In this document: positions 1,778 through 4,256 of the stretch, in pieces
Layout: each line of letters begins with the position of its first letter
How positions within the stretch are numbered: the first letter of the stretch is position 1
Source: a virus
Taxonomy: Duplodnaviria; Heunggongvirae; Uroviricota; Caudoviricetes
Reading direction: 5' to 3' (one strand)
DNA length: 4,256 nucleotides
IMG/VR virus record: IMGVR_UViG_2537561928_000019
Made by a program: the position numbers and the translations under genes
Notes under the pieces: model-generated
What the model saw: only the letters and a program-made list of their open reading frames with translations
What the model was told of the DNA's origin: nothing
Databases searched by the model: none

Positions 1778-2199
1778 AAATCAAGCATGAACACATCCGC
1801 ATGGCGATGAATGCCTGGGCGCATCCGGACGGTGAAAAAGTTCCGGCTGCGAAAATTACCAAAGCGTATTTCGAGCTGGGAATGACGTTCCCGGAACTGT
1901 ATAACGACAGCCATCCGGAAGCCCTGGCTCGCAATACTCAGAAAATTTTCCGCTGGGTGGAGAAAGACACCCCTGATGCGGTTAAAAAAATTCAGGCGTT
2001 GTTACCAGCTATCGAAAAGGCAATGCCACCTCTGCTGGTGGCCCGAATGCGCAGCCACAGTTCAGCCTATTTTCGGGAGCTGGTGGAGACACGGGAGCGA
2101 CTGGTGAGAGACGCTGATGATTTTGTCGCAGTGGCAATCGCCGGTTTCAATCAGATGAACCGCGGTGGCCCGGCAGGAAATGCTGTGGCAGTGCATTGA
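1774..2199 (+). CDS. ydaT: YdaT-like protein (CII-like regulator of Rac/CP-933P-type prophages), 141 aa
   Basis: Track ORF 1774..2199(+). N-terminus MKIKHEHI... and size match my recollection of the YdaT family. Translationally coupled to the ydaS-like gene through the ATGA overlap. Confidence 0.75.
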   Translation: MKIKHEHIRMAMNAWAHPDGEKVPAAKITKAYFELGMTFPELYNDSHPEALARNTQKIFRWVEKDTPDAVKKIQALLPAIEKAMPPLLVARMRSHSSAYFRELVETRERLVRDADDFVAVAIAGFNQMNRGGPAGNAVAVH

Positions 2200-2270
2200 C
2201 TGACAATAGCCATATCGAATCGCTTCCGGCAACTCGTGAGTAAAAAGATTCGGTATCAGAAGAGGTGAGT

Positions 2271-3341
2271 ATGGCTAACGCCTGGCTCAGATTATGGCAT
2301 GACATGCCAAATGACCCTAAGTGGCGAACAATTGCCAGGGTGTCAGGGCAGCCAATTGCAACAGTGATGGCAGTGTATATCCACCTCCTGGTGAGCGCGT
2401 CACGAAATGTCACGCGAGGTCACATTGATGTCACGACAGAAGATTTGGCAAGTGCGCTCGACGTGACAGAAGAGGTAATTGATTCAATTTTGCAGACGAT
2501 GCAGGGGCGGGTACTTGACGGTGATTTAATCACTGGATGGGAAAAACGCCAGGTGCTGAAAGAGGACAACGGCAATATTTCGCAAACCGCAAAATCTCCT
2601 GCAGAGCGCAAGAGGGCGCAGCGAGAGAGGGAAAGAAAGCGGGAACAAAATGGCAATTGTCACGGCGCGTCACGAAATGTCACGCACATGTCACGACGAG
2701 TCACGACAGATAAAGATACAGATAAAGATACAGATCAAGAAGATCAAAACACTATGGTCCATGGCGTAAAAAACGCCACGAACCAGGCAGGGGATGTTCA
2801 GACCGTCAATCCTGGTCAGCCAGCAGGCACGACACCGGAAGCCGATTCAGCGTATGCGCTGAAAGCCGATTCGGGCGCTGTGCAGCAGGTGATGACCGCA
2901 AGGCCGGAGCAATCACACCAACTGCAGCAGCCTGAAGCCGATTCCGCCATTCAGCGGGAAGCCGATCGGGTAGTCCCGGAAAACACCGGGCAGCCTGTGA
3001 GACGAGTGGATTATCCGGATGTGTTCGAACAGGTCTGGCGGGAATACCCGCTGCGTGCTGGGGCAAACCCGAAGAAATCCGCTTTCAGTGCCTGGAAGGC
3101 CAGATTACGCGAGGGGGTGTCACCAGAGGCCATGCTGGATGGCGTGAGGCGTTACGCAAGATACCTTGCGGCTACCGGGAAAACGGGAACGGAATTTGTT
3201 CAGCGAGCGACGACGTTTTTTGGACCGGACCGGAATTTTGAAAACCCCTGGCTGCTCCCGGTAAGCGGCACGAACAACCAGCGTTGTGTGAATCATATTT
3301 CTGAACCGGATACCGAAATTCCACCGGGCTTCAGGGGGTAA
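2271..3341 (+). CDS. Putative phage replication initiation protein (in the YdaU / lambda-O position) with a low-complexity central linker and embedded iterons
   Basis: Track ORF 2265..3341(+). I prefer ATG 2271 (MANAWLRLWHDMPNDPKWR...) with GAGGTG 3 nt upstream; GTG 2265 is the alternative. The C-terminal segment VFEQVWREYPLRAGANPKKSAFSAWKARL... resembles a motif I recall from phage replication proteins. The central part is Asp/Lys/Thr-rich low complexity encoded by DNA repeats. Position after the cro/cII analogs matches lambdoid O-type genes. Confidence 0.65.
   Translation: MANAWLRLWHDMPNDPKWRTIARVSGQPIATVMAVYIHLLVSASRNVTRGHIDVTTEDLASALDVTEEVIDSILQTMQGRVLDGDLITGWEKRQVLKEDNGNISQTAKSPAERKRAQRERERKREQNGNCHGASRNVTHMSRRVTTDKDTDKDTDQEDQNTMVHGVKNATNQAGDVQTVNPGQPAGTTPEADSAYALKADSGAVQQVMTARPEQSHQLQQPEADSAIQREADRVVPENTGQPVRRVDYPDVFEQVWREYPLRAGANPKKSAFSAWKARLREGVSPEAMLDGVRRYARYLAATGKTGTEFVQRATTFFGPDRNFENPWLLPVSGTNNQRCVNHISEPDTEIPPGFRG
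2399..2435 (+). repeat. Iteron-like direct repeat cluster 1 (4 copies of GTCACR at 10-11 bp phasing)
   Basis: GTCACG at 2399 and 2409, GTCACA at 2419, GTCACG at 2430. The 21-mer GCGCGTCACGAAATGTCACGC at 2396-2416 recurs exactly at 2666-2686. Confidence 0.5.
2659..2705 (+). repeat. Iteron-like direct repeat cluster 2 (5 copies of GTCACG at 10-11 bp phasing); candidate origin core
   Basis: GTCACG at 2659, 2669, 2679, 2690 and 2700, one copy per helical turn, immediately followed by an AT-rich tandem repeat. Located inside the initiator gene, as lambda ori is inside O. Confidence 0.55.
2707..2750 (+). repeat. AT-rich tandem repeat (CAGATAAAGATA x2, then degenerate CAGATCAAGAAGATCAA); possible DNA-unwinding element
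   Basis: Exact 12-bp tandem duplication at 2707-2718 and 2719-2730, followed by degenerate copies. Encodes DKDTDKDTDQEDQ in the initiator. Directly 3' of iteron cluster 2. Confidence 0.45.
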
Positions 3342-3381
3342 GTGTTGATTTCTGGTCATGAGGTAATTTTCAGGAGGGCTT

Positions 3382-3804
3382 GTGGCAAAAGTTTTTACAC
3401 AAGAAGAGCGGGAAAAAATTAAAGGGCAGGTTGTTGAACTCGTACGCCGGAGTGGGCGTGAGACGTTACGGCAACTGGAAGTCAAGACAGGTGCGACAAG
3501 ATATCTGATGAGCGTTCTCGCAAGAGAGCTGGTTGCCAGCGGCGATGTATACAACTCTGGTTACGGGTTATTCCCGTCTGAACAGGCGCGTAAGGACTGG
3601 CAAAATGCCCGTAAAAAGCTCTCAAGGGCAAAGCTGAAGGAACCATCTGCGGTTGATCCGGACCTTATCTGGTCATTACCTGACGGAGAAATACGTCGTT
3701 ACGACAGGCGTCATAATATGATTTGTACTGAGTGTCGTAAAAGCGAAGTTATGCAGCGCATATTGTCGTTTTATCAGGGGGATGTCCGGTATTTATTGAA
3801 GTGA
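3382..3804 (+). CDS. Hypothetical protein, 140 aa, function unknown
   Basis: Track ORF 3382..3804(+). GTG start with AGGAGG SD at 3372-3377; an in-frame stop 18 nt upstream limits any extension. Starts 40 nt after the initiator stop, so probably the same operon. The protein is basic with a possible HTH-like N-terminal segment (RETLRQLEVKTGATRYLMSVLARELV) and a C-terminal CTECRK motif. I do not recognise the family. Confidence 0.6.
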   Translation: MAKVFTQEEREKIKGQVVELVRRSGRETLRQLEVKTGATRYLMSVLARELVASGDVYNSGYGLFPSEQARKDWQNARKKLSRAKLKEPSAVDPDLIWSLPDGEIRRYDRRHNMICTECRKSEVMQRILSFYQGDVRYLLK

Positions 3805-3872
3805 CGAGATTAAAGTGCATTAGTTCAGATGCAAATTGACATTTTGTGGCACAGGGTAGAGCTAGCGTGGTT

Positions 3873-3896
3873 GTCCGCTTTGTGCCAAGAGCGGAC
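3873..3896. terminator. Candidate stem-loop between convergent genes (weak intrinsic terminator candidate)
   Basis: GTCCGCT (3873-3879) pairs with AGCGGAC (3890-3896) around a 10-nt loop, followed by TTTG. The U-tract is short, so this is weak. Confidence 0.25.
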
Positions 3897-3933
3897 TTTG
3901 CAAAATGGGGGTTATTTCAATCAAAACGTAACG

Positions 3934-4254
3934 TCACAACCAGCCGACGCTCTCTCGCCATTTATAATTAGTAACTTTATCATTTTCGCTTATTTTTTTA
4001 GATATAGAGCGCGGCTCTCTTCCTAGATACTCAGATATTTCTATCGGGGACAAATCAAAATCAACAAGCATGACTCTAAGTTTTTCCATTTCCTTTAAAG
4101 TCCAAGGCTTGCCATAATTTTCATAAAGAGATACCTTATGCTCCCTGATAGTTCGCTTTCTCTGAGTTTCACTTTCCCTCTGAAAAATCTCGCTTTTAAA
4201 TTGTGAACGGAACTCTTTACAGAAGTTGTTATCAGTTTTTTTGTTATATAGATT
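3934..4254 (-). CDS. 3' part of a minus-strand gene running off the right edge; hypothetical protein with a Myb/SANT-like HTH motif, encoded in low-GC DNA
   Basis: Manual translation of the reverse strand gives a 107-codon open frame from the window edge to TGA at 3936..3934: ...NLYNKKTDNNFCKEFRSQFKSEIFQRESETQRKRTIREHKVSLYENYGKPWTLKEMEKLRVMLVDFDLSPIEISEYLGREPRSISKKISENDKVTNYKWRESVGWL. Absent from the ORF track because the start is outside the window. The segment KPWTLKEMEKL...ISEYLGREPRSISKKI resembles a Myb/SANT-type helix-turn-helix. The region is clearly more AT-rich than the rest of the window. Confidence 0.5.
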   Translation of the reverse strand, partial: NLYNKKTDNNFCKEFRSQFKSEIFQRESETQRKRTIREHKVSLYENYGKPWTLKEMEKLRVMLVDFDLSPIEISEYLGREPRSISKKISENDKVTNYKWRESVGWL

Positions 4255-4256
4255 GC

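Follow-up and report, generated by a model that had tools for sequence, protein, structure and literature searches.

A DUF977/Ren-like gene at the end of a phage replication module without a helicase loader of its own

The open reading frame described here lies downstream of the replication initiator in a 4,256-nt stretch of caudoviricete DNA (IMG/VR record IMGVR_UViG_2537561928_000019; hereafter the window), and its 140-residue product is, judged by profile similarity, a member of the DUF977/lambda Ren family. Taken as a whole, the observations are probably best explained by a terminal gene of the DUF977/Ren family that has a Ren-type role by homology and is not a helicase loader. The gene is an already known, widely annotated family member at its canonical place, and its novelty is low. 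As a finding, a routinely annotated DUF977/Ren-like protein at the usual place carries little weight; what interest is left attaches to how Ren-family proteins work and to the idea of a DnaT-like tail on the neighboring initiator (Table 1).

Table 1. Features of the module, with positions in the window except where another locus is named.
Feature	Position	Strand	Basis
Replication initiator/replisome organizer, 358 aa from GTG 2265	2265..3341	+	PHROG 3729
Two (T)GTCACG iteron clusters within the initiator gene	2398-2468, 2658-2705	+	sequence
DnaT-like C-terminal tail of the initiator, QRCVNHISEPDTEIPPGFRG	3279..3338	+	14/20 identical to DnaT C-terminus
Shine-Dalgarno AGGAGG, 5 nt before the GTG	3371..3376	+	read from sequence
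DUF977/Ren-like protein gene, 140 aa (LygF in some phage records)	3382..3804	+	Pfam, PHROG, hhalign, dN/dS
N-terminal winged helix-turn-helix, residues 7-64	3400..3573	+	AlphaFold2, pLDDT ~87-94
Conserved C-terminal Ren motif, residues 105-131, RRYDRRHNMICTECRKSEVMQRILSFY	3694..3774	+	most conserved family segment
3' part of the convergent cargo gene, 314-aa hypothetical protein, cut by the window end	3934..4256	-	translation
DUF1627 genes	L002 7122-7835; L017 5753-6313		

The frame is a genuine coding gene under purifying selection because its dN/dS ratio is 0.11-0.22 (Nei-Gojobori method, against 13 homologues). Its start codon is a GTG on the plus strand, and in 12 homologous loci of the DUF977 gene a GTG or ATG stands at the identical start position with the Shine-Dalgarno sequence kept before it; PGAP calls the same frame and the same start. 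A spurious open reading frame is ruled out by the dN/dS ratio together with the kept start codon and the kept Shine-Dalgarno sequence. The original prediction of a basic 140-residue protein with a GTG start and a strong ribosome-binding sequence holds: the protein has a pI of 9.76, with 28 Lys and Arg residues against 19 Asp and Glu residues, and AGGAGG ends 5 nt before the start. The spacer that separates the gene from the initiator measures 40 nt and contains no helicase-loader gene. A promoter and terminator scan of positions 2100-4256 returned counts equal to the shuffle expectation and no plus-strand terminator 3' of the DUF977 gene, and an Rfam scan of the entire window returned no match.

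Pfam PF06163 (DUF977) matches the protein at E 1.3e-28 (100.1 bits, cutoff 22.1) in a full-length alignment that pairs residues 1-135 with positions 1-133 of the 134-position profile. Residues 1-137 also match PHROG 142, "Ren-like exclusion protein", at E 2.1e-44. Lambda Ren itself matches the PHROG 142 profile at E 1.6e-41, and a DUF977 profile built from 12 diverse family proteins with Ren left out gave an hhalign probability of 94.7% against lambda Ren (E 6e-8), the 75 aligned columns spanning the winged helix, at Ren residues 14-50, and the C-terminal motif. BLASTP against lambda Ren aligned the C-terminal 20 residues alone (45% identity, E 1e-5); the Pfam DUF977 model by itself gave no match to lambda Ren, and an NCBIfam search with the 140-residue protein returned no family at all. 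An identical protein is present in RefSeq as "DUF977 family protein" (L018; E. coli UK_Dog_Liverpool), close homologues in phage records are named DUF977, Ren-like or, in those of Rac-like phages, LygF, and PF06163 is present in 120 of the 120 closest database clusters. The earlier statement that the protein could not be matched to any family was wrong in view of the Pfam and PHROG E-values, and a profile search that returns a confident match to a known replication-module family refutes its description as unrecognised.

This small basic protein consists of an N-terminal winged helix, a variable helical linker and a conserved C-terminal motif. In the AlphaFold2 model (mean pLDDT 76.6), the N-terminal domain is predicted to comprise helices at residues 7-24, 29-36 and 40-53 and a beta wing, and a long helix covers residues 67-86. 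Structure prediction, which had been put forward as a check on the gene, is confident for the winged helix-turn-helix and yielded only generic fold matches: searches of the model against PDB and BFVD returned generic winged-helix domains at E ~0.01 and nothing for the C-terminal part, and a PDB sequence-profile search returned only weak matches to winged helices of Z-alpha, AsnC and MntR type (E ~1e-3).

Conservation is concentrated in the C-terminal motif, with a majority-residue fraction of 0.74 compared with 0.50-0.53 in the N-terminal and winged-helix segments and 0.26 in the linker. The shared motif reads N-x-[IV]-[CF]-x-E-C-R-x-S-x-x-M-x-R-[IV]-L-x-x-Y, and N112, E117, C118, R119, S121, M124 and R126 are invariant, lambda Ren included. 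Because this segment combines high conservation with low predicted order (pLDDT 59-72), we suggest that it may fold on a partner. A zinc ribbon at C115-x-x-C118 was considered and discarded: there are two cysteines only, lambda Ren lacks the first of them, and there is no further conserved Cys or His; a zinc-bridged dimer is conceivable, though not supported.

Set against the Pfam DUF977 family, the window protein falls in the same length class (130-142 aa) and its gene occupies the same place after the replication genes, with no difference of substance. Its likeness to lambda Ren consists of the same PHROG 142 membership, the same order of a winged helix followed by the C-terminal motif, and a gene that stands last in its replication operon, on the rightward early transcript. 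Lambda Ren has 96 residues; the window protein is 44 residues longer and has an extra N-terminal helix and a 40-residue helical or variable linker with an FPSEQ...W segment that is absent from Ren. Ren also carries F in place of the first Cys of the DUF977 C-x-x-C pair, and lambda ren overlaps the P stop codon, whereas here the 40-nt spacer lies between the initiator and DUF977 genes.

In all the layouts examined, the replication module ends with the DUF977/Ren gene. Lambda has O-P-ren; E. coli M1, Rac-SA53 and two Stx phages have an initiator followed by a DnaC-like gene, a DUF1627 gene and DUF977; the order YdaU-YdaV-DUF977 is also found; and in the window, L001, Tritos, HannyBb, Shigella flexneri and E. 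ruysiae the initiator is followed directly by DUF977, which several O-like initiators likewise adjoin. The DUF977 gene has been lost from K-12 Rac. Among 5426 complete E. coli genomes, the loader-less junction (window positions 3142-3582, counted at a coverage of at least 80%) is present in 1550, compared with 639 for the initiator-to-DnaC junction. Phage Tritos has the loader-less layout and a DUF977 gene 95% identical to that of the window; no DnaC- or P-like gene was found in its genome by annotation or tblastn, and it plaques on MG1655 (PMC9928086).

These layouts bear on three proposals of the original prediction. That a loader is to be expected at this position is partly correct, but the loader-less junction is the commoner of the two. 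That the gene stands in place of a loader does not survive, as a DnaC-like loader is present elsewhere with DUF977 still downstream of it; synteny, which had been named as the means to settle the matter, puts the gene after the loader wherever there is one. That it is an inserted accessory gene disagrees with its standing as the conserved terminal gene of the module in all layouts examined. Because of this synteny, and because the loader-less phage Tritos forms plaques, the gene is, on comparative grounds, neither a loader substitute nor an insertion, and the module type of the window is simply one without its own loader.

The best-supported reading is that the protein would be a Ren-type early protein, shielding the replication phase from Rex-like abortive exclusion, and it is the best supported because the known facts concern lambda Ren. 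Rex+ lysogens support only poor growth of heteroimmune lambda ren mutants, suppressors of lambda ren lie in O and P, ren is co-transcribed and co-translated with O and P, and Ren pairs with RexA and with RexB in bacterial two-hybrid assays, with modest signals of ~100-330 units (bioRxiv 10.1101/2021.04.19.439022 supplement). A yeast two-hybrid screen detected RexB-Ren with a single vector pair, and Ren also bound four further lambda proteins there, again with a single vector pair each (PMC3224144). Resistance to Rex exclusion is the only known phenotype of Ren, and it is known for lambda Ren only; for proteins called DUF977, LygF or "Ren-like exclusion protein", the literature searched contained no functional study. 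Through Rex resistance and co-transcription with O and P, the link to lambda Ren upholds in spirit the earlier suggestions of a replication accessory or an anti-defence function.

We envisage that the DUF977 gene ends the rightward early (replication) operon and presumably shares a transcript with the Cro-like, CII/YdaT-like and initiator genes. Homology and the conserved position suggest that its product would do as Ren does in lambda and, in cells that carry another prophage, keep the replication phase of the phage from being aborted by Rex-type exclusion. It would probably do so through its conserved C-terminal motif, by contacting Abi proteins, or the replication complex that sets off these proteins by its activity, or both. 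Because ~74% of complete E. coli genomes contain a member of the family, we suggest that its role may be broader than countering Rex. PADLOC, whose models describe defences and not counter-defences, gave no family at E <= 0.01.

Three other functions have to be weighed against this Ren-type role. That the gene encodes a novel small helicase loader or adaptor, in place of a DnaC- or P-like protein, is barely credible. Its position relative to the initiator is that of the loader in lambda and Rac, and Tritos has no phage-encoded loader; yet this position right after the initiator is the sole likeness to the DnaC/YdaV-type and lambda P loaders, whose sequence and domain similarity and ATPase fold the window protein does not have. 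The protein gave no AAA+, IstB_IS21 or Bac_DnaA match in Pfam at E <= 1, whereas the genuine loader of L002 matches IstB_IS21 at E 4e-20; it contains no Walker A sequence (GxxxxGK[ST]), and neither BLASTP against lambda P in the reference panel nor Pfam connects it to that family. Moreover, DUF977 proteins 64-86% identical to that of the window coexist with DnaC-like loaders in M1, Rac-SA53, the Stx phages and the YdaU/YdaV layout, as Ren coexists with P in lambda, and initiators that are 97-99% identical occur both with and without a DnaC-like gene. Synteny thus already goes most of the way to refuting the loader reading.

The chief competing reading makes the protein an intrinsic replication accessory. 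Its target would be the initiator, the origin or the helicase-loading step of the phage itself, with an effect on, for instance, initiation or the theta-to-sigma switch, and Rex protection would be a side effect of altered replication intermediates. We hold this to be unlikely, even with the evidence that it can draw upon: the gene is invariably at the 3' end of the replication module, whatever the type of initiator or loader; lambda ren overlaps P and is translated with it, and its suppressors map to O and P; Thomason et al. describe Ren as "likely involved in DNA replication"; and the winged-helix domain is basic. The papers examined on Ren, however, mention no replication defect of lambda ren mutants on non-lysogens, and no binding site was found, the sole nearby iteron-like sequence being a 12-nt match with one mismatch. 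A winged-helix transcription regulator, acting on the downstream (nin-region or cargo) genes or on the early operon, is highly unlikely. The N-terminal domain does resemble winged helices of MarR, GntR and AsnC type, at weak E-values, and PHROG 2391, "DNA binding protein", matches at E 3e-5, but a regulatory role becomes less likely because the downstream neighbors differ wholly between loci while the protein is still conserved, and because the highest conservation falls in the non-HTH C-terminal motif and not in the recognition helix; a search for a palindromic operator nearby found none.

The Ren-type reading also has a more general form, which we consider quite improbable, in which Ren/DUF977 would be a "replication-module guardian" whose C-terminal motif binds a sensor of phage replication intermediates, RexAB being only one such sensor. 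The sensor would belong to the host or to a prophage, and folding of the motif would probably be induced by this partner; in loader-less modules, the protein might cooperate with the DnaT-tail-mimicking initiator to capture host DnaB-DnaC. If true, some three quarters of E. coli genomes would carry this widespread factor for counter-defence or replication coupling. Tritos, a K-12 plaque former with a 95%-identical copy, offers a tractable system for the family.

A connection through YdaW was also pursued and dropped. K-12 ydaW has been reported as a blocker of the retron-Sen2 toxin (bioRxiv 10.1101/2020.06.22.160242); YdaW is a truncated member of the DUF1627 family, with 56% identity to its M1 counterpart, and not a DUF977 protein, and it gave no BLAST match to the window protein. 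The retron-Sen2 result is not transferable to the window gene because YdaW belongs to a different family. The likeness of YdaW/DUF1627 (Rac) consists in being a neighbor of DUF977 in loader-containing modules and in winged-helix domains with a faint PHROG 142 match (E 0.0055). DUF1627, the true YdaW family, and a DnaC-like loader form the usual two-gene cassette between initiator and DUF977.

On the other side of the spacer, the initiator, for which the PGAP-type start is ATG 2271, matches PHROG 3729, "replication initiation protein", at E 4e-256, its C-terminal half matches DnaD-like and primosomal PHROGs, and its identity to the initiators found in phage Tritos and E. coli M1 is 97-99%. Its tail shares 70% identity (14 of 20 residues) with the C-terminus of E. 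coli K-12 DnaT, matches positions 156-179 of the NCBIfam DnaT model, and is common to the YdaU and O-like initiators that stand beside DUF977; the last ~63 nt of the initiator gene and the spacer are conserved even where the remaining initiator differs. As part of the pre-primosome, DnaT brings in DnaB-DnaC (PMC13220808), and the initiator tail may, by mimicry of host DnaT, recruit host DnaB-DnaC. The loader-less module would probably borrow host DnaB-DnaC, possibly via this tail, and a DnaT-like tail on a loader-less initiator is a concrete, testable idea for host helicase recruitment.

The two iteron clusters within the initiator gene, the second of which has five copies with ~10-nt phasing, probably constitute the origin, as in lambda O. 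One inverted 12-mer that resembles the iterons, TGACATTTTGTG, is located in the intergenic sequence just 3' of the DUF977 gene (3837-3848); it has one mismatch to CACGAAATGTCA and could be a chance occurrence or an extra initiator site.

With matches in 4020 of 5426 complete E. coli genomes, DUF977 ranks among the most frequent prophage genes of that species, and the family is narrow in range: among 1.84 billion proteins it forms 101 clusters at 50% identity and 856-951 clusters at 90% identity, and the source-named matches in the 90% clusters are all from Escherichia or Salmonella. Contigs L005, L008, L009 and L010, binned in Collinsella, Veillonella parvula and Bacillota metagenome-assembled genomes, carry the gene at 87-95% protein identity, and its presence in these bins is most likely binning contamination.

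The whole window is intact in none of the 5426 complete E. coli genomes. Coverage reaches 89% at most, at ~97% identity, and stops near 3780, whole-window matches in these genomes break at ~3779-3783, and positions 3700-4256 are 100% identical to a different set of strains, L018 included. Because the left-hand match ends at ~3780 and the right-hand segment is identical in other strains, the window is, as its pattern of matches indicates, a recombinant of two common segments. The final codons of the DUF977 gene contain a mosaic junction, both in the window (3780-3804) and in homologous loci: the window protein ends in the seven residues DVRYLLK, and the tails that follow ...FYQG in homologues read DVRYLLK, NFQEVMA, NFQEAVL, NVRYFRRY or YA, or give way to an immediate stop.

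The slot downstream of DUF977 looks like a variable site for defence cargo. In the window and in L018 it holds a gene for a 314-residue hypothetical protein, in L018 WP_001678528.1 (7235-8179, minus strand), which is followed there by a homologue of PD-T7-1 (E 7e-157; L018 7235-10076 for the two together), and in Tritos the same slot holds a PDC-S15/FRG-domain protein (L003 5661-6995). At the other end of the window, positions 513-1376 on the minus strand encode a three-gene module of a PaaR2-like regulator, a PaaA2 antitoxin and a ParE toxin, which stands where the immunity region would have its repressor side and is divergent from the YdaS/Cro-like gene.
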